Source of the DNA: an uncultured virus (IMG/VR IMGVR_UViG_3300008117_000099)
Lineage: Duplodnaviria > Heunggongvirae > Uroviricota > Caudoviricetes
DNA length: 30,783 bases
Direction: 5' to 3' (one strand)
IMG/VR virus record: IMGVR_UViG_3300008117_000099
Position numbers and translations under genes: made by a program. Under the pieces are notes generated by a model. That model was not told the DNA's origin. It ran no database searches and worked only from the letters and a program-made list of their open reading frames with translations. Below are positions 1 to 30,692 of this stretch, in pieces; position 1 is the first letter of the stretch; each line of letters opens with the position of its first letter.

Positions 1-56
1 TGCCACATGAATTCCTCTAAACGCTTTGATGGTTCATCTTGCTGACGATTAATCAC
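1..56 (-). CDS. partial hypothetical protein (5' end; runs off the window)
   Basis: GTG start overlaps the TGA of the HNH gene (GTGA coupling); frame is open to the window edge (MINRQQDEPSKRLEEFMW...). Confidence 0.45.
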   Translation of the reverse strand, partial: MINRQQDEPSKRLEEFMW

Positions 57-343
57 TTCTCGTTCTCTTTCTTTCCTGCACGGCGCTTGTTTTCTTTAGC
101 GGTGTTCTTGCCATGCTTTAGAGGACGTAGGTTGCTGCCCTTGTCATTATTGTGGTTATTGTCCTTGTGGTCCACATCTGTGTCCTTAGACAACTTTCCA
201 TGCTTTGACTCGTAATCGGCCCTAGCTTTGTTTTTAGAGGTGGTAACCCACTTGCCGCCTACCTTTTTCTTGTAGACATAGATTGGACGTCCGCCATTGG
301 CCTTGGAGCCCTTATATGGGCCAAACTTTTTGGTCTCAGCCAT
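53..343 (-). CDS. small HNH endonuclease-domain protein
   Basis: Motif DVDHKDNNHNNDKGSNL...H.KN is typical of the HNH (beta-beta-alpha-Me) fold; TAATG coupling to the upstream ORF. Confidence 0.75.
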   Translation of the reverse strand: MAETKKFGPYKGSKANGGRPIYVYKKKVGGKWVTTSKNKARADYESKHGKLSKDTDVDHKDNNHNNDKGSNLRPLKHGKNTAKENKRRAGKKENEK

Positions 344-1776: not shown

Positions 1777-2044
1777 TCAATCCTAGGTAGTCCATCGCCT
1801 TATCAAAAGTACTTTTGCGCTTTTCAACTGGCTTTGACATAGCAATTGCTTCATCTTCATGCTTTGTCATCTCTGGGCTATCTTTGCCGCGGTTCAAAGG
1901 GATTGGCACAGTTTGTCCAGTGCGTTCTTTGACTCGACGAGTAGCAGTAAGGTCGATAACGCGGTGTGAGTCACTTGCACGGTTAGCAGGTGCTGTGCCA
2001 AATTTCATGCGAGGTCCAAAGCCCTCAAATGGTTCGTCTGTCAT
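1760..2044 (-). CDS. hypothetical protein
   Basis: 94-aa ORF, ATGA coupling to the upstream gene. Confidence 0.7.
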   Translation of the reverse strand: MTDEPFEGFGPRMKFGTAPANRASDSHRVIDLTATRRVKERTGQTVPIPLNRGKDSPEMTKHEDEAIAMSKPVEKRKSTFDKAMDYLGLSDPNG

Positions 2045-2772
2045 ACTCCAGCTTGTCCCCTTCCATAACGTGGAACAGAAAGACCTTGACGTTGTGCAAC
2101 AGAGGTTGCATTTGTCATGAGGTGCTCGAGTGCACCGATATCTCCGTGTTCTGGGTGGATATTAATTGATTGAATAATTCCTGAACGTGGATGCCACGAA
2201 ATAGAAGATTCATTATCTTCGTGTAGAAGTGTGGCAATATGATGTCCTCCACCCTTCTTACCAATCTTAGCTTTTTGCACTGTTACGCCTTGTGCAGGAT
2301 TGATTGTGCGCTCAGCAGGTCCTTTAACTTTACCTGACTTAGTGACGCACGAGCCGCCACTACACCGCACTCCCCACTCACCTGTACCGCGACGCTTCTC
2401 TTGTGGAATCTTAGATACGTGAATTGGTTCGCCTACACCCGGTGCAATTGACTTATCGCAGTTGTAACACTTTCCAGGATAACGATTTACATTCTGTCCA
2501 GACTCACGAGTATCTTTTGCAACAGAGAAATCAATTGTTGTTCCATACTCACGCTCTGTGCGATTTGGGTCATAGCCTTCACCATTTGGTCCGGTGATGC
2601 GACCTAAGCGATTTGTATCTCCAAGGCTTCTATCAATAAAACGTTGACGACCTGGAGAAATAAACTCTGGCATATCTGGGTCTTTTGCACTAGATGCACG
2701 AGGTGTTGTTGCACGCTTGGTCTTACCGGCACCTCGAATGATGCTAGCTGCACTCTTTTTCTTCTTAGCCAT
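2041..2772 (-). CDS. basic hypothetical protein with possible Zn-binding CxxC...CxxxxC
   Basis: 243-aa ORF, GGGGAG RBS upstream, CYNC and RCSGGSC motifs. Confidence 0.8.
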   Translation of the reverse strand: MAKKKKSAASIIRGAGKTKRATTPRASSAKDPDMPEFISPGRQRFIDRSLGDTNRLGRITGPNGEGYDPNRTEREYGTTIDFSVAKDTRESGQNVNRYPGKCYNCDKSIAPGVGEPIHVSKIPQEKRRGTGEWGVRCSGGSCVTKSGKVKGPAERTINPAQGVTVQKAKIGKKGGGHHIATLLHEDNESSISWHPRSGIIQSINIHPEHGDIGALEHLMTNATSVAQRQGLSVPRYGRGQAGV

Positions 2773-2787
2773 ATTGTAAATTCTCCC

Positions 2788-3021
2788 CTATAACCCTGTG
2801 TAATTCTCGCTTAATTCCACGTATTCCTTAAATGAGCACGACAACTCAGCCATAATCGCGGCATAGCTTCTTGGGTGTTTAGCAATGAAGTGTTTAGGTA
2901 TATCCGTGGCCTTGGACTTGCGGGATAGGCAGGCGTTGTTTATATCTGCTTCTATCAATTTAGCAAAGCGCCCAACCCGGTCGGGCCGGTCAGACTGCTC
3001 CAGAAGCCATGCGATAAACAT
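2788..3021 (-). CDS. YozE/SAM-like small protein
   Basis: N-terminal FxxWLxxQxxRxDxVGxFA pattern recalled from the YozE SAM-like family; leaderless start (TACCAT-N7-ATG). Confidence 0.55.
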   Translation of the reverse strand: MFIAWLLEQSDRPDRVGRFAKLIEADINNACLSRKSKATDIPKHFIAKHPRSYAAIMAELSCSFKEYVELSENYTGL

Positions 3022-3036
3022 GGCAGAAATGGTAGG

Positions 3037-3618
3037 TTAGAAACCCCTGCTGTGGCATTCCATAACTAAATTATTTACTGGCTTGCCACGAGAGAAATGA
3101 GCAGCGACTGTAGGGGACACGTTGTCGATAAGCACCTGGTGCATGCCTAGTCTCTTAATCCTCTTCTTCAGTATTGCCCCATCTTTATTCTCTTCGGCAA
3201 TCATGCCCATATACAAAATGGTCCAGATGACACAGGCTTCAAAGTCATCACGGTAATTCCAAGAGATTTCTTTAATCAGTTGAATGACGGGGGCCGTGTC
3301 AGCATATTTTGACCCTGCCGTAGTTGCGTCATAGATTTTCACGAAATCAGCATAGATATCTTTTGCTGGTCGTTCTTTGGACCACTGCCGAACGATGCGG
3401 AAATACCACACATCAGTTGGAAAGCGCATCCACCGCTTATTGCTACTGACGACATGGATGCACCAGTCATCAAAGCTACCTTTGCCAAAGTAGAGAGCGA
3501 CCTTATCGCCCTCAGTGGTAAAGGTGGCTACATGTTGCTTAAGCGCAGAATTCTTTCGGGTTCCAAAGTTTCGTTCAATTTGAGCAAGCGCAGTGTCCAG
3601 AGCAGTTTGACGGTCCAT
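3037..3618 (-). CDS. hypothetical protein (DUF7004-like body) with RecA-like N-terminal helix
   Basis: N-terminus MDRQTALDTALAQIERNFG resembles RecA residues ~1-20; body has FDDWC, PTDVWYF, DFVKIYD, GMIAEENK, LKKRIKRLG, FSRG motifs (family assignment from memory). Confidence 0.75.
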   Translation of the reverse strand: MDRQTALDTALAQIERNFGTRKNSALKQHVATFTTEGDKVALYFGKGSFDDWCIHVVSSNKRWMRFPTDVWYFRIVRQWSKERPAKDIYADFVKIYDATTAGSKYADTAPVIQLIKEISWNYRDDFEACVIWTILYMGMIAEENKDGAILKKRIKRLGMHQVLIDNVSPTVAAHFSRGKPVNNLVMECHSRGF

Positions 3619-3700
3619 CCTCAGATGCTATCACTTCGGCTACTGCCTCGCTATTTTCGATTGAAATTAATTTTGCGTTACCGCAGTTTTCGCTACACAT
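3575..3700 (-). CDS. putative 41-aa Cys-rich leaderless peptide (not in ORF track)
   Basis: MCSENCGNAKLISIENSEAVAEVIASEDGPSNCSGHCACSN; ATG lies 6 nt after TACACT, the same geometry as the neighbouring promoter; overlaps the next gene by 44 nt. Confidence 0.35.
   Translation of the reverse strand: MCSENCGNAKLISIENSEAVAEVIASEDGPSNCSGHCACSN
3619..3647 (-). promoter_or_regulatory. leftward leaderless promoter GGCAGTAGCCGAA-N4-TAGCAT-N6-ATG
   Basis: 13-mer at 3635-3647; -10-like box at 3625-3630; ATG at 3618. Confidence 0.6.
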
Positions 3701-3729
3701 GGGAAAAGTGTAACAGTTCGGCTACTGCC
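3701..3729 (-). promoter_or_regulatory. leftward promoter GGCAGTAGCCGAA-N4-TACACT-N6-ATG
   Basis: Identical 13-mer at 3717-3729 with identical spacing to TANNNT and to ATG (3700). Confidence 0.55.
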
Positions 3730-3770
3730 TGGAATTCTAGGTGTTACCTGTTGTTGTCTCCTGGCGGGGG

Positions 3771-3863
3771 TGTGACGGGGGTCACAGTCTAATGGTGGGG
3801 GGTCTGCTGTGATAGAGGTCACACCGCTGGGTGGCAGGTTGGCAGGGTATGCGGGTGTATCTT
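3771..3863 (+). promoter_or_regulatory. repeat module 1 (downstream half only): two TGTGA-N6-TCACA boxes, GGGTGGCAGGTT, -10
   Basis: Boxes 3771-3786 and 3808-3823; 12-mer 3829-3840; 17-nt spacer; TATCTT 3858-3863. Confidence 0.8.
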
Positions 3864-3906
3864 TATCTTATTAGCAACAGTGCTAATACCTAACAAGGGG
3901 CTACCA

Positions 3907-4332
3907 ATGAACGAAGCAACACCAACACCTGAGGTCACACTTGCTGACCGCTACGACTCAACCGCTGTAATCGTGCTCAACCCTAGCGAGTACGTCGAGA
4001 AGTCAGCACTCGACTTGAACTACGACCTCCGTCGTCTCGAGTCATATCGCTCAATCGCTAACAATCAGACATCTAACATCGAGTCTGTCAAAGAGTATCT
4101 CATCGAGAACTACGATGAACTAGGAGGTCATGCCGATTCAATCGCTGAACTTCTCGACATCGAACTTACTCGTGAAGTCGAGTACACCGTCACCATGACC
4201 GCTACGGTCACCGTCACTATCAAGCCGGGCGACGATGCAGACTCACTCATCTCCGACAGTCTCTACATCGAGTCCAACGACAGCAATGTCACCGTCGACG
4301 ATTGCACCGTCGATTACACCAACGAGGCTTAG
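3907..4332 (+). CDS. acidic hypothetical early protein
   Basis: ORF track 3880..4332; AAGGGG RBS places the start at ATG 3907. Confidence 0.8.
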   Translation: MNEATPTPEVTLADRYDSTAVIVLNPSEYVEKSALDLNYDLRRLESYRSIANNQTSNIESVKEYLIENYDELGGHADSIAELLDIELTREVEYTVTMTATVTVTIKPGDDADSLISDSLYIESNDSNVTVDDCTVDYTNEA

Positions 4333-9976: not shown

Positions 9977-10338
9977 TGTTTGTGTTGGCCCACCCTCCCT
10001 ATCCGTTAGGGAGTTGTTGTTAGAGAGATGTGACCAATCTCACATGTGATTCTGCCCACACTGCCACCGGCTGTGACGTAAGTCACATGTGACATTGCTC
10101 ACAGACATGAAATGTCGACAAATCGCTATGTCTGCTTATGGCTATTTCGGCTACTGCCCGAAATGTGACGGCGGTCACGGCGGTATGACCAGATGTTAGA
10201 AGCCCTCTCGGGCTAGTTATTACATAACAGAGAGAGGCATACTCAGAGAGAGATGAGAGAGACAGAGAGAGTGTGACGCTAATCACAGAAAGATTATTGG
10301 CTCGGGTGGCAGGTTCTGTCGGTATGCGGTGGTTGAAT
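9977..10338 (+). promoter_or_regulatory. repeat module 9, expanded, with six TGTGA-N6-TCACA-type boxes
   Basis: TGTTTGTGTTGGCCCACCCTCCC; boxes start at 10029, 10045, 10072, 10088, 10164, 10272; GA-rich tract ~10229-10271; 12-mer 10304-10315. Confidence 0.8.
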
Positions 10339-10371
10339 ACTCCTATGCCCAACAGAAAGGGGTCTTACAAG

Positions 10372-11763
10372 ATGTCGCAAGAAAGCCTTGCGGTACTAGT
10401 AGTCGGCTATAACGCCTCTACTTGCTATCAAACACTCATCATGCCACAGGAGTCTGACACTCTCCTATTCCACAGAGAATATACAGGTCAACGTGGTCGC
10501 GGTTCGGCTTGGCGCACAATTTCGCTAGGTGAACTGCCTAATACGGATAAGGTCGAAGCACCGTTCTGCTTCTCCGTATCTACCAACAACATCGCTCAGG
10601 CAGGTATTGGTCTTATTACTCCTGTCTCTAACAAGGCTATGAAACTATGGGACGAGAACTCCCCTGTTACTGCCCTTGAAACTACCTCTGATTACCTTAC
10701 CGTAGTCAAACTCATGCGTGACATGCTCATCGAAGGCTCTGCTGACCTTCAATCCTCTGTCATTGACGGTTCTAACGTCTCTCTACGACCAATCGGCAAA
10801 GCGCGAAATCCTCTAGGGGTGTCGTTCCAACCCGAGCGAGAGCCTGAGACGACCGTTGTCCCTGTCGCAACTCACGCACCGACTTCAACCGACGTTATCG
10901 TTGCTGAAGTGCCCGATAAGAAGTGGGCTAACACCTACGTCAATCGTAAGTTGCCCTCAGGTCACACAGAGTTTGAAATCTTTGACTCTGCCCTAGCCAA
11001 TGCTGAGAACGTCCTCATCTTTGGGCCGACAGGTTCGGGCAAGACCATGAGCGCACTCGCTTATGCCTCTACTCGCAACCTCGATTACTACAACATCTCA
11101 TCTCACAACGGCTCTGAGCCTTCAGAGTGGATTGGTCGTTGGATACCAACGCCTGACGGTCACTATAAGTGGCAAGACGGTGCGGTCACTCAGATTGTTC
11201 GCAACGGCGGTGTATTGCTTCTCAACGAAGTTAACTTCCTTCCTGAACGTGTCACGACCGCTATCTTTTCTCTGCTCGACGACCGCCGTCACCTACAACT
11301 TATGGGTAACAACGGCGAGATTGTTCACGCTCACCCGAACCTTCTCATCATCGCTGACATGAACCCGAACTATCGCGGTACACGTCCAATGAACGAAGCG
11401 TTCAAAGACCGTTGGGCGCACAAGTTGGAGTTCGACTACGACCCAACTATCGAGCGTCGTCTCATCAAGGCAAAGTCCTTGCTCGAAATGGCAAAGGCGT
11501 TGCGTGAAGGCGGAGAACGTCGTGAAATCATGACGCCAATCTCTACACGGTCACTAGTGACCTTCTCTAATAATATCCACAAGTTGGGATTGGATTACGC
11601 TATCTATTCCTTCCTCAATGGGTTCGGCGACATGAAGGAACGCAACGCCGTCCGTGTAATTGTCGAGAACACTTACAAGGCGAACATCGCCCAAGACTTT
11701 GGTATCGAAGTCAACTTTGTGACCGACGTGGCTGAGCAAGTAGCAGAGGCGGTTCAAGCATGA
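10372..11763 (+). CDS. MoxR-group AAA+ ATPase (CbbQ/NirQ/CobS-like)
   Basis: Walker A GPTGSGKT, Walker B VLLLNEVN, WQDG, MNPNYRGT..MNEAFKDRW, ISTR; AAAGGGG RBS gives ATG 10372. Confidence 0.9.
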   Translation: MSQESLAVLVVGYNASTCYQTLIMPQESDTLLFHREYTGQRGRGSAWRTISLGELPNTDKVEAPFCFSVSTNNIAQAGIGLITPVSNKAMKLWDENSPVTALETTSDYLTVVKLMRDMLIEGSADLQSSVIDGSNVSLRPIGKARNPLGVSFQPEREPETTVVPVATHAPTSTDVIVAEVPDKKWANTYVNRKLPSGHTEFEIFDSALANAENVLIFGPTGSGKTMSALAYASTRNLDYYNISSHNGSEPSEWIGRWIPTPDGHYKWQDGAVTQIVRNGGVLLLNEVNFLPERVTTAIFSLLDDRRHLQLMGNNGEIVHAHPNLLIIADMNPNYRGTRPMNEAFKDRWAHKLEFDYDPTIERRLIKAKSLLEMAKALREGGERREIMTPISTRSLVTFSNNIHKLGLDYAIYSFLNGFGDMKERNAVRVIVENTYKANIAQDFGIEVNFVTDVAEQVAEAVQA

Positions 11764-13754
11764 GCCGTCAATGGGCAGACGAAGCACAGTTCAATATCTA
11801 TGACTACAAAGAACTAGTCATTGAACGCTACGACGAGCAGACATGGGTTGACCTAATTTCAAGTCAGTTAACTGAGGACGAAATTACCAACATCGCTGAC
11901 ACCATTGAGGACATCGTGGACATGGAACACGCAGAGTTAAACTCAATGTGTTCCGTGTTCACAACCGCAGACCGTATCCTCACCAAAGAAGGCGACGTTC
12001 GTGTCAAGACTTACAAGCCAACTGCTGACGACGAAGGACAGTACGACGGTGTCTCAGGTTGGTCTGACGGCAAGACCGTCATGTTCAATCTAGACGTTGT
12101 TCGTGCGTTGTCTGAAACAGACCTAACGGCTCTCAATGGCTTGAACTATCACGAACTCTGCCACCTTATCTACACTCCCCGAGCAGGTTCTGAGTTAATC
12201 CAATGGGCGGTCAAGAACAAGGTACAACGTGCCATGAACTACTTAGAGGACATGCGTATTGAAACGTTGTTCACGGCTCGCTTCCCAAGCACTCGCTTGT
12301 TCTTGGAGTCTAACTTCATCTCATACGTTGCCAACCATGACGTTAATAATAACGACACGCTTTTTCTATTAACTCGCGGTCGTCGCTATATTCCTCTTGC
12401 TATCCGTCAACGTATTGCTGATTGCTTCATCGAAGCACACGGTATCAAGGTTGCTCAGGAAGTTGCTGACGTGGTTGACCAATACCGTACTCTTGTATTC
12501 CCACGCGACTTTGAACTAGCCAAGCCACTCATCATGCGTTACTCAAAGATTGTTGGCTCAGGTAATAATCCTCAGGGCGATAACGGTGAAGGTAACGAAG
12601 GTGAAGGCAACCAACAAGGCGACGAATTAAATCTCGATTGTCCTAACGGTTGTGCCGACCGCAAGCCAATGAAAAACGGTCGCCCACTCTCACAGAAAGA
12701 ACAGAACGCTGACTCTGCTAAAGCACAAGAAGCAGACAAGCAGGACAAAGCCGAGCAGTTAAATAATAAATCCGACGACGAAACTATTAACGGTGGCGAC
12801 GGTCAAGGCGACTCAACCCATGAGTACAACGACAACGTTGACTCCGAGCAGTTAGAGCAGGACACACGCAAGACCGACCAAGACATCGCTGACATGCTTG
12901 AACAACGTGCCAAAGAAATCCGTGAGAACGAGCAGGTACGTCGTGAGGTTCGCAACTTCAAAGAAGCGGTCGATACCAATAGCGAATACAACGGTGCTTT
13001 GAAACAGGCTCGCTATCGTGACGAACATGTCTCTCTCAATAGTGACATCGACTTATCTGCTGAGAAGTTCGGTCGTGAGTTAGAACGTCTAGAGGTAGAA
13101 GCCGAGCCAACATGGTTGCGTGAGTTATCGTCAGGTCGTCTCAACGTTGAGCGAACCATGAACTCTGACATCAACTCTATCGACCGCATGTTTGACCGTT
13201 GGCAGGACGCCGATTACTCCACCGAGATTGAGGCAGTTATCTTGCTCGACAACTCAGGCTCTATGGGCTATCGAATTACAGAAGCATGCCGTTCGGTGTG
13301 GGCTATCAAGCGTGGCTTGGAACGTATCAACGCCAACACCACCGTCTATGCCTTCAATAGCGGAAGCCGACTTCTCTACTCTGCTACCGAGAACGCTGAC
13401 CCTAAGAACGTTCGCGTCCTTCACACAGGCGGTACAACTAACCCACTCATGGCTCTAAAAGAAGCCGAGCAAATATTTAACATGAGTAGCCGTACCACTA
13501 AATTATTATTTATCGTAACCGACGGTGGCTTTGACCACTCTGAGCCATGCGACGATTACATCAAAGCGTTCAATGACTCGGGCGTTATCACAAGCACCGT
13601 GTTCATCGGCTACATGCACCGTGACGTGGACGTTGATTACATCGAACACTATCGTCACTACGCTAAATACTTTAATGTTATATCTCAGCCGTCCGACCTT
13701 GTGCGGATTGCTACCGACATCGTTCAAGGCGAGATTGGAGTACGAGTCGCATGA
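11760..13754 (+). CDS. vWA-domain protein with N-terminal HExxH region (CobT-like AAA+ partner)
   Basis: HELCH and NYLEDMRIE, acidic linker, SGRL, MIDAS DNSGSM...GGT...TDG; ATGA coupling to the ATPase. Confidence 0.9.
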   Translation: MSRQWADEAQFNIYDYKELVIERYDEQTWVDLISSQLTEDEITNIADTIEDIVDMEHAELNSMCSVFTTADRILTKEGDVRVKTYKPTADDEGQYDGVSGWSDGKTVMFNLDVVRALSETDLTALNGLNYHELCHLIYTPRAGSELIQWAVKNKVQRAMNYLEDMRIETLFTARFPSTRLFLESNFISYVANHDVNNNDTLFLLTRGRRYIPLAIRQRIADCFIEAHGIKVAQEVADVVDQYRTLVFPRDFELAKPLIMRYSKIVGSGNNPQGDNGEGNEGEGNQQGDELNLDCPNGCADRKPMKNGRPLSQKEQNADSAKAQEADKQDKAEQLNNKSDDETINGGDGQGDSTHEYNDNVDSEQLEQDTRKTDQDIADMLEQRAKEIRENEQVRREVRNFKEAVDTNSEYNGALKQARYRDEHVSLNSDIDLSAEKFGRELERLEVEAEPTWLRELSSGRLNVERTMNSDINSIDRMFDRWQDADYSTEIEAVILLDNSGSMGYRITEACRSVWAIKRGLERINANTTVYAFNSGSRLLYSATENADPKNVRVLHTGGTTNPLMALKEAEQIFNMSSRTTKLLFIVTDGGFDHSEPCDDYIKAFNDSGVITSTVFIGYMHRDVDVDYIEHYRHYAKYFNVISQPSDLVRIATDIVQGEIGVRVA

Positions 13755-18345: not shown

Positions 18346-19827
18346 CTAATTGTCTTCTATAGAACTTTGGATAATCTTAGTGGTCTGCTCCTCGTTCAGT
18401 CCATTATTAGGTAACTCTTTGAGGGCTTGCGCCTTGTCTCCAAAGATTGCAGACAGGACTCCACCAGTTCCTTGACGCTCAACAGTCATGCGAATAAACT
18501 CGCGGGAATCATCCAATTCCTTAACTGTTTTGATGAGTTTGAATAGTCTATCAATTTCTTGCGAAACATTTGGGTCAGCGTAACCGCCGTTCATTTCTTC
18601 GCTAAAACGCATGAAAGCTACCCTTTGACCCTGCATTTCAATGATTGCGTTAATCAAACTCTTAAGTTGTTCTTTAGTCTTAACCTCTACTGGCAGGTTA
18701 AAAGCACACGCAGATTGGGGCTTAAACGCTGGGCAGTTAGCGGCTACAAAGCATGTATCGCACTGACGTAACGTGGCGGATTGTGACCTAACAACAGGTA
18801 CTTCTTTAATGACATCATGACCCTGTTCATCCTGTTCAACAACGCTCTTATACTCGTATCCAAACACTGGAAGTGGTCCCATTTCATCGGGATTACGGGG
18901 TTCAACTTTCCGCATGCCAACACCCTTCTTATCAACATTGGCAAGGGTAGTTTCCGCGTTAGTATCATCGTCATGATTATCGCTATTAGTATATAACTCG
19001 TCATCCGAGCCGCTATGGTTCATCATGTTTATCTTAGTCTCCATCTGCTCGTATGACCAGATTGCCAATCGGCAAACTTCTTGGGGGTCGTCGGCTAATA
19101 TCTTGTCGACATCAAGCCATGCCTTCTCGTATATCTGGCGGTATCTAGAACGTGCCTGTTCTTTCATCCGTTTTGGGTATCGTACTAGACGTGTGCCATC
19201 CCAGACAATTGTCTCACCGTGAGTCATCGGCGACAACCAGGAAAGGGTTGAGGCTGACTCAAATATTATCTGGCGTAAATTGTCAGGTTTTGCACATCCA
19301 ATTGCATGGAACCGGGTGCCGTGCCTCCGTTGAATCATTCGGCTATCGGATGCTAACCAGGTCATTTCCTCTATGGTTTCACCTGGTATGCCAATGTCTA
19401 AATATTTTTGCGCCATCTCATTTAGCCCGCGTTTACCGCTAGATGGGTCCCAGACCGGCAAAAACTTTGCCGGCGGTAGTTGGGACCAGGCGGTCTTTCG
19501 CTGTACCTCTATGAACTCCGGGCTTAGGCCAGGGTGAATGACCTCTGAGAACAGGGTAATACGGTCAATATTATTAGCAATAAATTCTTCGTAGTCGGCG
19601 GCAAACTGCTCGAGCTCATCCAGGCTTAACTGTTGATTACGGGGGATTCCAGCATGGACAAATATTTTCATGCTCTCTGGAAAATAATTAGATAGCAAAT
19701 ACGCCTTGGTTTTAGGCAACCCGCGCTTGACCAGCCGCCAGTAGCTCACGCCAACCTCTGTAGCTCCAGCTGACTCCAGAAGGGTTCTATTACTAGGGAC
19801 CTCGGCCCCCAAATATATTATTTTCAT
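18346..19827 (-). CDS. TGT/queuine-tRNA-ribosyltransferase-like barrel (degenerate) with C-terminal CxxC...CP...C domain
   Basis: VSY, VHAG, LPVW, IGIP, FHAIG, FESASTLSW parallel the DSG/PVxH/HxxG/SxDSTSW motif order of phage TGT-like proteins; CDTCFVAANCPAFKPQSAC. The CDS is certain, the function tentative. Confidence 0.5.
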   Translation of the reverse strand: MKIIYLGAEVPSNRTLLESAGATEVGVSYWRLVKRGLPKTKAYLLSNYFPESMKIFVHAGIPRNQQLSLDELEQFAADYEEFIANNIDRITLFSEVIHPGLSPEFIEVQRKTAWSQLPPAKFLPVWDPSSGKRGLNEMAQKYLDIGIPGETIEEMTWLASDSRMIQRRHGTRFHAIGCAKPDNLRQIIFESASTLSWLSPMTHGETIVWDGTRLVRYPKRMKEQARSRYRQIYEKAWLDVDKILADDPQEVCRLAIWSYEQMETKINMMNHSGSDDELYTNSDNHDDDTNAETTLANVDKKGVGMRKVEPRNPDEMGPLPVFGYEYKSVVEQDEQGHDVIKEVPVVRSQSATLRQCDTCFVAANCPAFKPQSACAFNLPVEVKTKEQLKSLINAIIEMQGQRVAFMRFSEEMNGGYADPNVSQEIDRLFKLIKTVKELDDSREFIRMTVERQGTGGVLSAIFGDKAQALKELPNNGLNEEQTTKIIQSSIEDN

Positions 19828-26396: not shown

Positions 26397-26681
26397 TTAA
26401 CTTGCATTTACAACGAACACAATGGCAGAAATTTGACCATCGTGGGATTCAATCGATGCGAAGCCTGGAATACACACCAGGTCTAAGCCTCTTGGGGCTG
26501 TATAGCCTCTGGCTATGGCGATTGCTTTTACGGCCTGATTTACTGCACCAGCGCCAACGGCTCTGATTTTGCAGCTTCGGGTCTCATAGATGCTATGGGC
26601 AATTGCAGATGCTACGGATTGTGGGTTTGAGCCGGCGCTTACTCTGAGCACCTGGTCATCAGGTTGGACTGTTTCAGACAT
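26397..26681 (-). CDS. spoVS: SpoVS-family (Alba-like) protein
   Basis: LRVSAGSNPQSVASAIA...IRAVGAGAVNQAVKAIAIARGY.AP.G.DL.CIP.F. Confidence 0.92.
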   Translation of the reverse strand: MSETVQPDDQVLRVSAGSNPQSVASAIAHSIYETRSCKIRAVGAGAVNQAVKAIAIARGYTAPRGLDLVCIPGFASIESHDGQISAIVFVVNAS

Positions 26682-28142: not shown

Positions 28143-29019
28143 TTTTTGCATTTAGTTGCTCCATATGGTGGTTACAGCTGCGACATCCTGCCGCACCGTT
28201 AATATTACAGTCAGGCATGACCCCAGCGCTAATCGAGTCAACAATCATCTGGGCTGCGTCAAACAACGGCTGGATACCAAAATCACTCTTTTGGATTACA
28301 AACTCTTTTACATCTTGGGTTGCCTTGGATTCGTAAAGAACCAGGGCCTCTTTTGGCGCATCTTCATAACCTATTAACTCCATGAGCTTCATGTACATCT
28401 GGGCTTGCTGGATGTGGGTGTAGAACGGCGTTTCTACATCTTTCCAAATCTTTTCAAAATTCCCATCGTGTTTAAAGAACAGGTCTGGAGTTTCCCAACG
28501 AAAAGTGCCAATGCCTACAGACTTAATTTCTAAAAGAAGGGGGTCGTTAAAATCAACTAACCAGCCATCTGCGTGACCTGAGATTCGTAACGGTTCGTAA
28601 TAAAGCGGTACTTCTAAGTACTCATATGCAGACGCAGGTGCCTCTGGGTCATGGTCGTTAGGGAGTCCAAAGAATACGTCTCCGCACTCTAAGCATTCAT
28701 ACTTACCTTTTAAACGGCCCATCTCTTTAAACCAAGTTTGCCAACGATGGTGAATATGGTGTCCTTCGTCAAACACCATGGCTTGTTTAAGGCTGGCTTT
28801 GTATTTAGAAGGTGCTGGTTCTGCGCCCTGTAACTCAAAGTAAGACGCTCGATAACACCAATCATCTTTTACCATTGCAGACGGATGCAGTACATCAGTT
28901 CGACGTGATGTATCGGCTGGTTTAGAAAGTAAAAACCGTTCTACCGACCCAAGAACTCTAGTGTCAACCTTTCCTAGGTCAACCAGTTTCTTAAGCGCTC
29001 CCGTTGGCTTGTATGTCAT
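28132..29019 (-). CDS. Cas4-like PD-(D/E)XK exonuclease
   Basis: HPS...WCYR, GHADG, LEIKS, QAQMY, C-terminal C...CRSC. Confidence 0.85.
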   Translation of the reverse strand: MTYKPTGALKKLVDLGKVDTRVLGSVERFLLSKPADTSRRTDVLHPSAMVKDDWCYRASYFELQGAEPAPSKYKASLKQAMVFDEGHHIHHRWQTWFKEMGRLKGKYECLECGDVFFGLPNDHDPEAPASAYEYLEVPLYYEPLRISGHADGWLVDFNDPLLLEIKSVGIGTFRWETPDLFFKHDGNFEKIWKDVETPFYTHIQQAQMYMKLMELIGYEDAPKEALVLYESKATQDVKEFVIQKSDFGIQPLFDAAQMIVDSISAGVMPDCNINGAAGCRSCNHHMEQLNAKNGN

Positions 29020-29333
29020 TTATTATTCCTAACCCATTCTTCTAGTGTGAAACCTTTTTTCTCCGCTTTTCTGCGAAGAGCGTTTCTTTCTCTGTGAGAA
29101 AGTCCGCCCCAGATTCCATGTTGTTCGTCATTGCCCTCTGCGTACAGAAGGCACTGTACTCTAACAGGGCACTCTGACAAACCGTCGCGTCCAAAGCAGA
29201 CGGCTTTAGCTTGGTTAGCAATTGGTTTATATAAATCTTTGTCTCGTGGCGGGAACCACATCTCGGTGTCCATGCCTTTACATTTGGCATCGTAACGCCA
29301 CTTTTCTACACCTTCGTCTTCGTACAAGAGCAC
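29016..29333 (-). CDS. whiB: WhiB-family transcription factor
   Basis: AKC...WFP...AKAVC...CPVRVQCL.YA...GIWGGLS..ER. Confidence 0.93.
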   Translation of the reverse strand: MLLYEDEGVEKWRYDAKCKGMDTEMWFPPRDKDLYKPIANQAKAVCFGRDGLSECPVRVQCLLYAEGNDEQHGIWGGLSHRERNALRRKAEKKGFTLEEWVRNNK

Positions 29334-29647
29334 TCCTGGAGATATTGGCGCAGTTCCAGGAAGTCGTCCTCAGTTAACAAAACGTAATTTTCACCGTTGA
29401 GATGAAAGCCAAGGACAGGCATTCGACTGTCAAGAATTGCTTCTTTGACAATCTTTTCAAGAACCGCAGCCTTAACGGATACGGAGGCTTTGCCCGTCCA
29501 CTTATGCTCTATGAGCAAATCTTCTGAACGTACATCGCCTTTTCGACTCCAAAAAGCTCCGCTTCCAGCATTACGCTTTCCGCCAACTTTCTTAGCGAGT
29601 CGGTCCTCGTGCTTCCTTGACTCCTTCTGTCCTTTACTCCTCGTCAT
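29306..29647 (-). CDS. Hjc-like PD-(D/E)XK nuclease / Holliday junction resolvase
   Basis: HEDRLAK...GSGA...KGDV...LIEHK. Confidence 0.75.
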   Translation of the reverse strand: MTRSKGQKESRKHEDRLAKKVGGKRNAGSGAFWSRKGDVRSEDLLIEHKWTGKASVSVKAAVLEKIVKEAILDSRMPVLGFHLNGENYVLLTEDDFLELRQYLQECSCTKTKV

Positions 29648-30692
29648 TGTCTGGTTCCACTACGTACTTAGACCCAGCCTTGACAGTTTCAAGAACCTCC
29701 TTCTCCAGTGATTCTTTTAAGTCAATCTCTTCTCGTATTGAGCTAACCATAGCATCTGCGCCCTGCCACTGCCGTTCGGCATACCGGTAATAGGCTCCTG
29801 CGCGAGTTATGACCTTATTTATGATGCCTAGCGCAACAATCTCCTTAGCAAAGTCATACTCGCCAGGCAGAGCGTTACCTCCGTCAGCAAAGTAAAAATC
29901 TACAAAAGCAGTCTGTGATGGTGGGGCGGATTTGTTCTTCAAGGTGCGAACCTTGATGGTCTGGCCTACTCGACGTTTTTCTTGTCCTGAGCCAACCTCA
30001 ATCCAATCATCACGTTTAATTTCAATACGTGTAAAGAACGCATAATCTTTTCCTTGCCCACCTGGAGTTGTTCGTGGGTCTCCATACATGACGCCAATCT
30101 TTGAACGCCACTGATTAATTAACAAACCAATAAAAGGACGCTCTGGTTGAGTTAATGAACGCTTTGATGCTTTTCCAACTTTGCGGAAGAACTTATTTGT
30201 GAGTAAAGCTCCGCGTCCAACAGTAGCTTCTTCCATTTCTTTCTCGTCTTCGGTTGAAGGAACCAGTGCGGGTAAACTGTCAATAACAATACAATCAATT
30301 GTTTTAGACCCAACAATTTCAATAACGGCACCATATGCTTCTTCCATTATATTTGTAGAAATTACATACACTCTAGATGGGTCAACGCCACAAAGTTCAG
30401 CGTAACCAGGAACCCACTCTTCTGCTGCAACCCACACGGTTGTAAAGTTAGGGTCTTTCTTTTGATTGGCAGCAATTGTTTTTAAAGCAATAGCAGTCTT
30501 TCCATTACTTGCTTCACCAACTAATTCATGCCATTGATTTGCCGGCCAACCACCGCCCAAGGCAACATCAAGAGATAAAGAGCCAGAAGTAAAACGATGA
30601 GGAACTTCTACTATCTCTGAGCCAAGAACAACGGTGTCTTCGCCAAATTTTTTATTTATCTTTGCTAATACTTTTGCTAGGTCTGCGTTCAT
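29634..30692 (-). CDS. recA: RecA/UvsX-like recombinase
   Basis: SGSLSLDVALGGG, Walker A GEASNGKT, VIDSL.ALVP, INQWRSKIGVMYGDPRTTPGG, KNKSAPP. Confidence 0.95.
   Translation of the reverse strand: MNADLAKVLAKINKKFGEDTVVLGSEIVEVPHRFTSGSLSLDVALGGGWPANQWHELVGEASNGKTAIALKTIAANQKKDPNFTTVWVAAEEWVPGYAELCGVDPSRVYVISTNIMEEAYGAVIEIVGSKTIDCIVIDSLPALVPSTEDEKEMEEATVGRGALLTNKFFRKVGKASKRSLTQPERPFIGLLINQWRSKIGVMYGDPRTTPGGQGKDYAFFTRIEIKRDDWIEVGSGQEKRRVGQTIKVRTLKNKSAPPSQTAFVDFYFADGGNALPGEYDFAKEIVALGIINKVITRAGAYYRYAERQWQGADAMVSSIREEIDLKESLEKEVLETVKAGSKYVVEPDNDEE

Follow-up and report, generated by a model that had tools for sequence, protein, structure and literature searches.

Bacterial RecA opens with helix A of its N-terminal domain (E. 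coli residues 3-21; PF00154 positions 1-17), which carries the pattern DRxxALDxALxQIExxFG at its extreme N-terminus. According to PMC2672939, Lys6 is joined by a salt bridge to Asp139 of the adjacent subunit, while Lys8, Lys19 and Lys23 face outward, towards the DNA. Ile26 is the polymerisation residue and docks in a pocket of the neighbour; Lee and Wang regard the Ile26 motif and strand beta-0 together as the motif by which the RecA family polymerises (PMC2672939). In eukaryotic cells, the BRC repeats of BRCA2 bind RAD51 through an interface described in two papers as mimicry of this polymerisation motif (PMC2672939, PMC8219027).

A link between host RecA and the activity of a phage protein is also on record. 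P1 Ref and PhiNM1 Gp16 are HNH endonucleases, and they provide a precedent for bringing a phage effector to RecA-coated DNA; the abstracts of the papers concerned make no mention of a copied RecA helix (PMC4330346, PMC4713147, PMC12817073). Among proteins that act on the filament itself, DprA has been proposed to cap it at the self-assembly interface (PMC4066776), and RecX is described as taking filaments apart (PMC5766188). None of these four known RecA regulators and phage binders matches the phage protein considered here; DprA and RecX have folds and interfaces unrelated to it, neither copies the RecA helix, and neither is hit in Pfam. Synthetic peptides derived from the RecA N-terminus have been used as filament inhibitors on the same idea, a free helix competing for the acceptor site, and these are laboratory designs rather than natural genes. 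A search of the literature open without subscription returned no description of a natural RecA N-terminal-helix mimic.

The gene analysed here (3037..3618, minus strand) lies in a window, the whole stretch of DNA that was studied, of 30,783 nucleotides. It is an ATG-initiated open reading frame at the head of a leftward operon, and its 193-aa product begins with a RecA-type helix, which a short linker connects to DUF7004. With bacterial RecA it shares the helix A pattern at the extreme N-terminus, a hydrophobic stripe and a basic residue in the place of Lys6; unlike RecA, it has an unrelated domain after the helix. The likeness to BRC repeats is one of principle, in that a non-recombinase carries a copy of a recombinase's oligomerisation element to the acceptor site (here a predicted one). 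However, the element copied by BRC is the FxxA strand motif, which corresponds to Ile26 of RecA, whereas the phage protein copies the preceding helix; BRC-RAD51 is eukaryotic and cellular, whereas this pairing would set phage against host; and the two are unrelated in sequence. In contrast to P1 Ref and PhiNM1 Gp16, the phage protein belongs to no HNH or other known nuclease family.

The gene and its RecA-like N-terminus

The open reading frame at 3037..3618 is a real gene. Homologues numbering 703 were retrieved, and both its position and its neighbours are kept in related lake-phage contigs. An in-frame TAG lies at 3628-3630, four codons upstream of the ATG, and in locus L002 (100% identical) this ATG is the sole ATG, GTG or TTG before the conserved FDDWC anchor at residue 49. 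The next methionine is residue 64, inside DUF7004, so that any start that left out the helix would also cut into the domain. The start codon assumed in the original prediction is thus borne out, and a true start downstream of the helix is ruled out by the upstream TAG, the start-codon scan of L002 and purifying selection on codons 1-19 (see below). The window gave neither a DNA nor a protein match among INPHARED phages. A run listing labels its DNA as lake water metagenome, and no RNA run was listed as containing it.

The segment that resembles RecA, MDRQTALDTALAQIERNFG, occupies codons 1-19 (3562..3618, minus strand), with residues 3-18 helical in the structural model. A 19-position HMM made from 105 bacterial RecA N-termini scored it at ~31 bits, an E value near 1e-11 for a single sequence. 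As a null set, the stop-to-stop frames of the window and of every locus fetched were scored as well (12,975 frames, 1.1 million residues); the best of them that was neither RecA nor DUF7004 reached 6.2 bits. By this comparison the N-terminus is RecA-like well beyond chance. The phage encodes a RecA of its own (29634..30692, minus strand; 352 aa; Pfam RecA E 9.4e-48), whose N-terminal helix, MNADLAKVLAKINKKFG, is divergent: it scored 3.5 bits with one of three RecA N-terminus HMMs and was not among the top 30 matches listed for the other two. The original prediction had held that the segment is nearer to the bacterial RecA pattern than the phage's own RecA is, and the two scores (~31 vs 3.5 bits) agree with it.

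To place the helix among natural proteins, a profile was made from 7 helix-bearing homologues (residues 1-40) and run against 5.8 billion proteins of 71-2000 aa, giving 770 matches at E<=10 among 4,754 candidates. The best 120 of the 770 consisted of 9 DUF7004 proteins followed by RecA (PF00154) in 111 of 111 cases, with a best E of 2.9e-4. Among these 111 listed RecA proteins, the helix was identical to that of the phage at 16 of 18 positions in 32, at 15 of 18 in 69 and at 14 of 18 in 8, and two had no helix match within their first 90 residues. The RecA matches listed came mostly from lake Actinobacteria, the named sources being Candidatus Planktophila, Candidatus Nanopelagicales and Actinomycetales. 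One actinobacterial RecA, P0313, agrees with the phage helix at 16 of 18 positions; against 92 further RecA helices from bacteria the median is 10 of 18. Besides its own RecA, the phage encodes WhiB, a RuvC-like resolvase and a Cas4-like exonuclease. Because of the WhiB gene and the nearest RecA helices, the host is probably actinobacterial, of the Nanopelagicales (acI) type. On these alignments the phage helix is specifically RecA-like and nearest to the RecA of this probable host lineage.

The features that were copied and those that were left out can be read position by position against the RecA consensus (D/E)(K/R)xKALxxALxQIE(K/R)xFG. A6, L7, A10, L11, Q13, I14, E15 and F18 are conserved in phage and RecA helices alike, and L7, L11, I14 and F18 retain the hydrophobic stripe formed in E. 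coli by L10, L14, I17 and F21. R3 takes the position that Lys6 has in E. coli; this third residue is R in 92% of the phage helices, and every RecA helix has K or R there. Position 5, which is Thr in the 193-aa protein, is Lys in 88% of RecA helices and never Lys in those of phages (these phage counts are from 14 rows, of which one, P0009, is misregistered). Two of the three outward, DNA-binding lysines, the equivalents of Lys8 and Lys23, are missing from the phage protein. Where RecA has its KGS(I/V)M polymerisation motif and beta-strand 0, the alignments show the linker TRKNSA (3544..3561, minus strand; codons 20-25; coil at 19-25 in the model), G19 being followed by TRKNSALKQ, so that the KGS-I/V-M motif is absent; no FxxA-type strand motif or Ile26 equivalent follows the helix. 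Because the Ile26 motif and strand beta-0 are missing, the helix alone may bind weakly.

The DUF7004 domain and the age of the fusion

Codons 26-193 (3040..3543, minus strand) form a DUF7004 domain of three strands and seven helices, as delineated by Pfam, alignments and an AF2 model (pLDDT 94). Residues 38-193 match Pfam DUF7004 (PF22539) at E 4.4e-47; the score is 160.4 bits, where the cut-off is 27, and the match runs over profile positions 4-155 of 155, which makes the phage protein a full-length member; most members, from bacteria and other phages, are about 160 aa long and lack the N-terminal helix. The alignments (39 and 100 sequences) contain the invariant or near-invariant motifs GxFDxWC, P67/D69, Y89/D91/F92, GMIAEENK and KKRIKRLG. 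A direct reading of the sequence found no Walker A motif (GxxxxGK[ST]) in any part of the 193 residues, and a Pfam scan at E<=10 listed DUF7004 only, with no RecA ATPase core. The original prediction had described a RecA-type helix running into an unrelated domain without Walker motifs. This is what was found, DUF7004 being that domain.

Searches for a fold or function gave little beyond the family itself. With the model as query, no fold was assigned (best E 0.4 in the PDB with Foldseek, best Z 4.8 with VIA wide, best E 0.09 in BFVD); the DUF7004 profile found only an unrelated best match at E 0.06 among PDB sequences, and the ESM Atlas held no usable match. PHROGs returned noise at E 0.1-0.2, neither Pfam nor PHROGs indicated an HNH nuclease family, and three proteins compared with PADLOC-DB (P0001, P0047, P0117) had no defence or counter-defence match at E<=0.1. 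In the literature searched, the term DUF7004 occurs in one paper, whose title and opening lines concern another subject. DUF7004 forms the C-terminal part of fusions in 4 of 18 long forms scanned, where its partners are Pol III alpha (P0166), a D12 Dam-type methyltransferase (P0192, P0199) and ASCH (P0253). DNA methyltransferases are neighbours in 4 of 24 loci and ThyX in another count of 4 of 24, the loci being hand-picked and three of the four ThyX cases coming from related large phages. We infer that DUF7004 is tied to DNA metabolism. Two more specific assignments were considered. A PD-(D/E)xK nuclease composed of P67/D69 and E143-x-K145 is a possible one, although a modelled helix contains the ExK and 74 residues separate it from the PD; the nuclease of a Dam-linked restriction system, which the methyltransferase fusions and adjacency might suggest, had no support from PADLOC.

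The distribution of the helix is narrow. All 12 rows with a RecA-like helix at an 8-bit cut-off fall within one 40-row phage sub-clade (branch support 81), itself nested in a 43-row phage clade (support 99), and the sub-clade also includes degenerate remnants of the helix. In bacteria, DUF7004 proteins are about 160 aa long and are without it. Within the helix-bearing clade the DUF7004 domains have diverged to about 44-50% identity. Over codons 1-19, comparison of the window with L176-178 or L003 gave synonymous differences per site of 0.87-0.99 and non-synonymous differences of 0.11-0.13. Synonymous sites are thus saturated between members of the clade, and codons 1-19 are, by this measure, under purifying selection. 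Several orthologues that occupy the corresponding place in their genomes, P0005, P0008, L183 and L184 among them, have nonetheless lost the helix or keep it only in degenerate form, which indicates that it is dispensable for the gene.

Taken together, these patterns suggest that the helix was probably gained once and lost several times. Among homologues, the N-terminal extension is carried within one phage clade, where it has been kept by purifying selection, apart from those orthologues in which it is lost or degenerate. A recent fusion to a recA fragment, offered as an alternative in the original prediction, is not supported as recent because the helix spans a diverged clade, its synonymous sites are saturated and selection on it is purifying. 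The likeliest origin is instead an old capture of the 5′ end of a host recA, in which an ancestor of the phage clade would have joined the first ~19 codons of a host-type gene to a pre-existing phage DUF7004 gene.

Predicted docking on host RecA

A complex was predicted between residues 1-30 of the phage protein and a host-type RecA core (P0313 residues 46-363), together with three controls. P0313 is a stand-in for the RecA of the host, picked by helix likeness; a search for a near-identical host recA among 401 genomes of one phylum reached at best only 82% identity to it. The RecA-helix complex scored 0.63 and the best of the three controls 0.00, although part of the former score may stem from the model's having learned solved structures of RecA filaments. 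Among solved complexes 116 of 157 attain this mark, and among mismatched pairs 2 of 215; because the prediction used our own alignments, these counts apply only roughly. Contacts agreed by at least 54% across the complex runs, and partner pLDDT was at least 64.

On the helix, the predicted contacts involve residues 3-4, 6-7, 9-11, 13-14 and 17-18; on RecA they involve residues 103, 129-131, 133, 138, 141-142, 145-146 and 148-152 of P0313, equivalent in mature E. coli RecA to residues 89 and 115-138, beside Asp139. R3 touches RecA residue 151. The helix is thus predicted to sit on the surface of the RecA core that normally receives the N-terminal helix of the neighbouring subunit. The original prediction had inferred an interaction with host RecA filaments, and a modelled one was obtained with the host-type stand-in, subject to the influence of solved filaments. 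We regard docking on host RecA as somewhat more likely than not.

The reading that we favour, while holding it as slightly short of an even chance, is that the N-terminus is a docking module that tethers DUF7004 to host RecA and at the same time blocks the acceptor site. The helix would dock on the acceptor surface (E. coli residues about 89 and 115-139), the normal seat of the neighbour's helix. With a link of only about 6 residues after the helix, the 168-residue domain would occupy the place of the next RecA subunit; DUF7004 would be held at RecA or at a filament end, and the acceptor site would be closed to further RecA. At the acceptor surface of the phage's own RecA, 3 of 16 positions are identical to host-type RecA, compared with 12 of 16 for E. 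coli, and the Asp139 equivalent is retained. Being diverged in both helix and acceptor surface, the phage RecA is predicted to escape. That the protein binds and caps host RecA, that the phage RecA is immune and that DUF7004 has an activity are all steps that we infer. A fuller version is more doubtful: a natural chain terminator in which the near-exact helix copy caps or occupies host RecA, blocks recombination and SOS and steers a DNA-acting domain, while the phage RecA has co-diverged to build an orthogonal filament.

The same docking evidence would serve a protein that only inhibits, capping host RecA monomers or filament ends with DUF7004 as steric bulk while the divergent phage RecA continues to work. 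Host recombination and SOS would then be suppressed, including SOS-triggered defences or competing prophages. Several features suit such a role. The linker is short; without the Ile26 motif and the DNA-binding lysines a bound copy could not extend the filament; the phage has its own RecA with a diverged acceptor surface, as well as the resolvase and the exonuclease; and the gene heads its operon at a divergent intergenic region. However, more than 30 residues of DUF7004 are invariant or near-invariant across 100 sequences, conservation far beyond the needs of a bulky appendage. The domain is also widespread without the helix, and its retention where the helix was lost several times suggests that its own activity is the core function. 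We therefore consider inhibition alone unlikely as the full explanation; if docking does occur, the selected effect is somewhat more likely to be the delivery of DUF7004 than inhibition by itself.

Still less likely, in our estimate, is that the recA-derived helix no longer binds RecA and has become a structural cap, a dimerisation element or a stability element of the phage protein. Its dispensability in many orthologues would fit, as would the pLDDT of 91 for residues 1-10 in the monomer AF2 model, where the helix may be packing on its own domain, and the predicted complex may mirror the model's memory of RecA filaments. A relic of this kind does not readily account for the retention of Q13, E15, R3 (at the Lys6 place) and the hydrophobic stripe after synonymous saturation. 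Nor would it explain why the closest RecA helices come from the likely host's lineage rather than from a random one, with identity of 16/18 to lake Actinobacteria against the median of 10/18 elsewhere. A different partner is improbable: the helix might bait a protein that recognises RecA's N-terminal helix, such as DprA, whose binding to RecA may involve that helix, or might regulate phage recombination by docking on the phage RecA with its retained Asp139 equivalent, but at its acceptor surface that RecA shares only 3/16 positions with the host type, and its N-terminal helix reaches only 3.5 bits.

RecA filament dynamics govern recombination, SOS, prophage induction and several defence responses. 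If the tether-and-block reading is true, phages attack the self-assembly interface of the RecA filament with a copy of its own helix, a strategy known so far from BRCA2/RAD51 and from designed peptides; the fuller version, with its orthogonal phage filament, would be a bacterial-virus counterpart of BRC-RAD51 mimicry and a first example of "interface orthogonalisation" between phage and host recombinases. The helix would then represent a minimal inhibitor tested by evolution, in which docking residues were kept and the DNA-binding lysines and Ile26 motif shed. It would also provide a handle on DUF7004, a family of 388 representative clusters. A testable extension is that many phages may keep a divergent RecA because an orthogonal interface permits them to disable that of the host.

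Genomic setting of the locus

Directly downstream of the DUF7004 gene lies a 77-aa gene (2788..3021, minus strand), placed by tblastn synteny and without a family in either Pfam or PHROGs. Of 15 related loci compared by tblastn, 11 have this gene together with the DUF7004 gene, helix-less loci included; the loci named for it are L003, L004, L176-180, L183, L184 and L187. The next gene of the operon encodes 243 aa (2041..2772, minus strand), likewise falls in no Pfam or PHROG family, and is kept in the nearest relatives, with tblastn matches of 52-56% identity in L003, L004 and L176-179. No RecA was found in three related viral records (G067-G069), which are fragments 15-31% complete.

The leftward operon is separated from a rightward gene (3880-4332) by a divergent intergenic region at 3619..3879, as defined by the map of open reading frames. 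A scan of 2700-4000 for consensus promoters and terminators gave counts at chance level. The intergenic region contains two exact copies of TTCGGCTACTGCCT (3635-3648 and 3717-3730), a sequence that occurs 3 times in the window against an expectation of 0.15.

A RecA-type helix at the N-terminus of a DUF7004 protein

The gene at 3037-3618 (minus strand) is a 193-aa ORF with an ATG start, and residues 38-193 of its product match Pfam DUF7004 over the full length (PF22539; E 4.4e-47, 160 bits vs. a cut-off of 27). A start downstream of the N-terminal helix is rejected. An in-frame TAG is located four codons 5′ of the ATG (3628-3630); in L002, a locus 100% identical to this one, the ATG is the sole ATG, GTG or TTG ahead of the conserved FDDWC anchor; and the second methionine is residue 64, already within the DUF7004 domain. 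GAGG abuts the ATG, an unusually short spacing for a ribosome-binding site. When codons 1-19 were compared with those of the related loci L176, L177, L178 or L003, differences per site were 0.87-0.99 for synonymous and 0.11-0.13 for non-synonymous positions. Saturation at synonymous sites with few amino-acid changes indicates that the N-terminal segment is translated and under selection.

Likeness of this segment to RecA was measured with a 19-position HMM constructed from 105 bacterial RecA N-termini. Of these, 78 are from genome loci that an alignment of E. coli RecA with phage RecA had located; the other 27 come from genomes of a single phylum. The phage protein scored about 31 bits (E about 1e-11 for one sequence). 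In a null set of 12,975 frames (1.1 million residues), the best frame that was neither RecA nor DUF7004 reached 6.2 bits, and a 13.8-bit match within the set was L187, a further helix-bearing DUF7004 protein. The helix of the phage's own RecA, MNADLAKVLAKINKKFG, scored 3.5 bits with one of three HMMs and fell outside the best 30 rows for the other two; the proposal that the DUF7004 protein is closer to the bacterial RecA pattern than the phage's own RecA is therefore upheld.

The strongest test of likeness was a database search that is independent of the chosen RecA sample. A profile built on residues 1-40 of seven helix-bearing homologues (A7) was searched against 5.8 billion proteins (71-2000 aa), giving 770 matches at E≤10 from 4,754 candidates. 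Among the best 120 of these 770, 9 DUF7004 proteins ranked first; the remaining 111 all contain PF00154, the best of them with an E value of 2.9e-4 over the whole database. Sources of the RecA proteins among the matches listed include Candidatus Planktophila, Candidatus Nanopelagicales, Actinomycetales and Actinomycetota. The sequence DRQKALDTALAQIERQFG, identical at 16 of 18 positions to the phage helix DRQTALDTALAQIERNFG, was present in 32 of the 111; another 69 were identical at 15 positions and 8 at 14, and in 2 no match to the helix was found within residues 1-90. Against 92 distinct RecA helices from a broader sample, the median was 10/18 and the maximum 14/18. Taken together, the HMM scores, the A7 search and the 16/18 identities confirm that this DUF7004 protein carries a RecA-type helix, nearest, among the matches listed, to that of lake-Actinobacteria RecA.

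Distribution of the helix and the DUF7004 family

DUF7004 has 703 relatives in a 90% clustered database and 388 representative clusters at E≤0.001. Most members are about 160 aa long, are found in bacteria and other phages, and lack an N-terminal extension. The helix was present in 11 of 111 parsed viral or metagenome loci (L002-L004 and L173-L180) and, outside the parsed set, in L187, for a total of at least 12 among the 140 fetched. A quick maximum-likelihood tree was made from 64 DUF7004 domain sequences. With the RecA-like helix called at an 8-bit threshold, all 12 helix-bearing rows fell within a single phage sub-clade of 40 rows (support 81), nested in a 43-row phage clade (support 99). 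They occurred in each of the four branches of this sub-clade, mixed with helix-less orthologues and with clearly degenerate versions (P0015, P0016, P0022, P0027 and P0028). The helix-less orthologues L183 and L184 sit in the same genomic slot. In the helix-less orthologues L181 (about 1080-1210), L182 and L188, the stretch AVAEYAKFAPM, immediately upstream of or across the start codon and partly in frame, may be a decayed remnant of the C-terminal half of the helix and the linker (ALAQIEKNFGP). With the strict threshold the tree requires at least 8 changes, and its simplest reading would be that the helix was gained once and then decayed or was lost repeatedly. The spread across the clade and the degenerate and helix-less orthologues argue that the helix is old, optional and retained in several lineages. 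A fusion to a recA fragment, offered earlier as an alternative, is not supported as recent, given the presence of the helix across four branches and the saturated synonymous sites.

An AlphaFold2 monomer model from a 100-sequence alignment (pLDDT 94, pTM 0.84) consists of a helix at residues 3-18, coil at 19-25, three strands and seven helices. Fold searches with the DUF7004 model produced no match (best E 0.4 with Foldseek against the PDB, best Z 4.8 in VIA wide, best E 0.09 in BFVD), nor did DUF7004 match PDB sequences, PADLOC or Atlas. The conserved acidic residues D50, D69, D91, E142 and E143, together with the basic stretch KKRIKR, may point to nucleic acid, a nucleotide or a similar ligand.

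DUF7004 forms the C-terminal part of fusions in 4 of 18 longer members scanned, behind DNA polymerase III alpha (P0166), D12 N6-adenine (Dam-type) methyltransferases (P0192 and P0199) or ASCH (P0253). Among 24 loci hand-picked for diversity, a DNA methyltransferase was adjacent or near in four (L048, L054, L204 and L210) and ThyX directly upstream in four (L019, L037, L045 and L251, three of them from related large phages); neighbors in L050 include a family A polymerase and RecA. These fusions and neighbors place DUF7004 in DNA metabolism, and they provide a lead to the function of the family. DUF7004 is repeatedly joined to the end of a module directed at DNA or the replisome; the RecA helix would add one more.

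Predicted docking on RecA and alternative roles

When phage residue i is aligned with residue i+3 of mature E. coli RecA, both helices share A6, L7, A10, L11, Q13, I14, E15, F18, G19 and a basic residue at position 3, which is R in 92% of phage helices (14 rows, one of which, P0009, is misregistered) and K or R in RecA. Thus R3 (equivalent to Lys6), the hydrophobic stripe and, mostly, R16 (equivalent to Lys19) are retained. At position 5, 88% of RecA helices have Lys, and phage helices have Glu or Thr, never Lys; T20 occupies the place of Lys23, and TRKNSA that of KGS(I/V)M. According to Lee and Wang 2009 (PMC2672939), Lys6 of E. coli RecA bridges Asp139 of the neighboring subunit, Lys8, Lys19 and Lys23 face outward and bind DNA, and Ile26 is a polymerization residue that sits in a hydrophobic pocket of the neighboring subunit, as a BRC repeat does on RAD51. 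The docking helix has therefore been copied minus DNA-binding lysines and minus the strand motif that relays polymerization. Residues 44-48 within DUF7004 (window 3475-3489, minus strand) read FGKGS, as do the five residues after the helix in RecA; this clade has the form FGxGxFD, G47 is invariant family-wide, and the likeness is probably coincidence.

Complex prediction was run with residues 46-363 of P0313, an actinobacterial RecA standing in for that of the host (core minus its own helix and strand; 41-row alignment), and residues 1-30 of the phage protein (18-row alignment). The score was 0.63 (0.62, 0.63 and 0.63 in three runs), and the best of 3 controls scored 0.00. The mark is reached by 116/157 solved complexes and 2/215 mismatched pairs, counts that are only a rough guide here because our own alignments were used. 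Runs shared at least 54% of contacts, with a partner pLDDT of at least 64. Predicted contacts involve helix residues 3-4, 6-7, 9-11, 13-14 and 17-18 and P0313 residues 103, 129-131, 133, 138, 141-142, 145-146 and 148-152, which map to residues 89 and 115-138 of mature E. coli RecA, just before Asp139; R3 touches P0313 residue 151, which lies two positions from the Asp139 equivalent. In the literature (PMC2672939), this surface is assigned to the N-terminal domain of the neighboring subunit. Since RecA filament structures have been solved, the pass may reflect memory of them; the model supports binding of the helix to a host-type RecA core without demonstrating it, and what it shows is compatibility with the acceptor site.

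The original prediction of a RecA-filament mimic is thus partly supported, with strong in silico evidence from likeness, selection and predicted docking. The reading we favor, at somewhat under an even chance, is that the helix would dock on the host RecA acceptor site, hold DUF7004 at RecA or the filament end and shut the site to the next subunit. The main points against any docking model are that the Ile26 motif is absent from the phage protein, that the helix has been lost repeatedly, that the complex prediction may draw on memory of solved structures, and that the confident residues 1-10 of the monomer model could mean self-packing.

A pure anti-RecA or SOS inhibitor is conceivable but unlikely; it would share the predicted docking and the objections to it. 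Less likely still is an inherited relic that serves the phage protein internally, a reading that self-packing and repeated loss would fit and against which the likeness and selection would weigh. Another partner, such as DprA, which has been proposed as a RecA filament cap (PMC4066776), or the phage RecA (29634-30692, minus strand), is very doubtful, the latter having a divergent N-terminal helix and acceptor surface. At 16 acceptor positions (15 predicted contacts plus the Asp139 equivalent), host-type RecA is identical to E. coli RecA at 12 and to phage RecA at 3, vs. 32% identity overall with the latter (105/326); phage RecA retains the Asp139 equivalent. Divergence of both helix and acceptor suggests that the phage RecA interface has co-diverged and may be orthogonal to that of the host.

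The phage protein is a member of DUF7004 and, lacking the ATPase core, is not a RecA. The tethering and capping proposed here would resemble the action of BRC repeats on RAD51, although a different element is copied. Synthetic RecA N-terminal peptides have been used as inhibitors. RecX-derived peptides are reported to inhibit RecA (PMC5766188). P1 Ref and PhiNM1 Gp16 are phage effectors coupled to RecA (PMC4330346, PMC4713147, PMC12817073); unlike the phage protein, those two are HNH enzymes. In the literature searched, with most subscription journals lying outside it, we found no description of a natural protein with a RecA N-terminal helix. Our data partly support mimicry of a recombinase self-assembly interface, a known principle in new form.

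Operon, phage setting and likely host

The DUF7004 gene heads a leftward operon divergent from the gene at 3880-4332. It is followed by a 77-aa and a 243-aa gene, an order also present in the related contigs L003, L004 and L176-L180; the 77-aa gene follows in remoter relatives as well, both helix-bearing (L187) and helix-less (L183 and L184). The plus strand has three occurrences of the 14-base motif TTCGGCTACTGCCT, two of them exact and one bearing a single mismatch, vs. 0.15 expected. Those at 3635-3648 and 3717-3730 lie between the divergent genes, ahead of the DUF7004 gene, and that at 10146-10159 precedes the CobS-like gene. The phage may use this motif as a promoter or operator.

The window, a phage fragment of 47% G+C, has no match among INPHARED phages, and the runs with this DNA are labeled lake water metagenome. 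It encodes a WhiB-type regulator (29016-29333, minus strand, E 2e-17), a SpoVS homologue (26397-26681, minus strand, Pfam E 1e-29), a class II ribonucleotide reductase, a RuvC-like resolvase, a Cas4-like exonuclease and its own RecA. Carriage of WhiB suggests that the phage infects Actinobacteria, and hosts of the lake-Actinobacteria type would be expected for a WhiB-encoding lake phage.

At 10273-13754 (plus strand), a CobS-like AAA_5 ATPase of 496 aa, which matches PHROG 'porphyrin biosynthesis', adjoins a VWA-domain protein (664 aa), which we take to be a CobS/CobT-like pair of the kind frequent in aquatic phages. A 493-aa queuine tRNA-ribosyltransferase-like protein (18346-19827, minus strand) has a PHROG match (E 2e-56) and none in Pfam; DpdA-like enzymes of this kind insert 7-deazaguanine bases in phage DNA. 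A basic protein of 96 aa (53-343, minus strand) has a weak HNH_3 match (E 2.7e-4, under the Pfam cut-off) and is kept at 80% identity in the related phages L003, L004 and L184.
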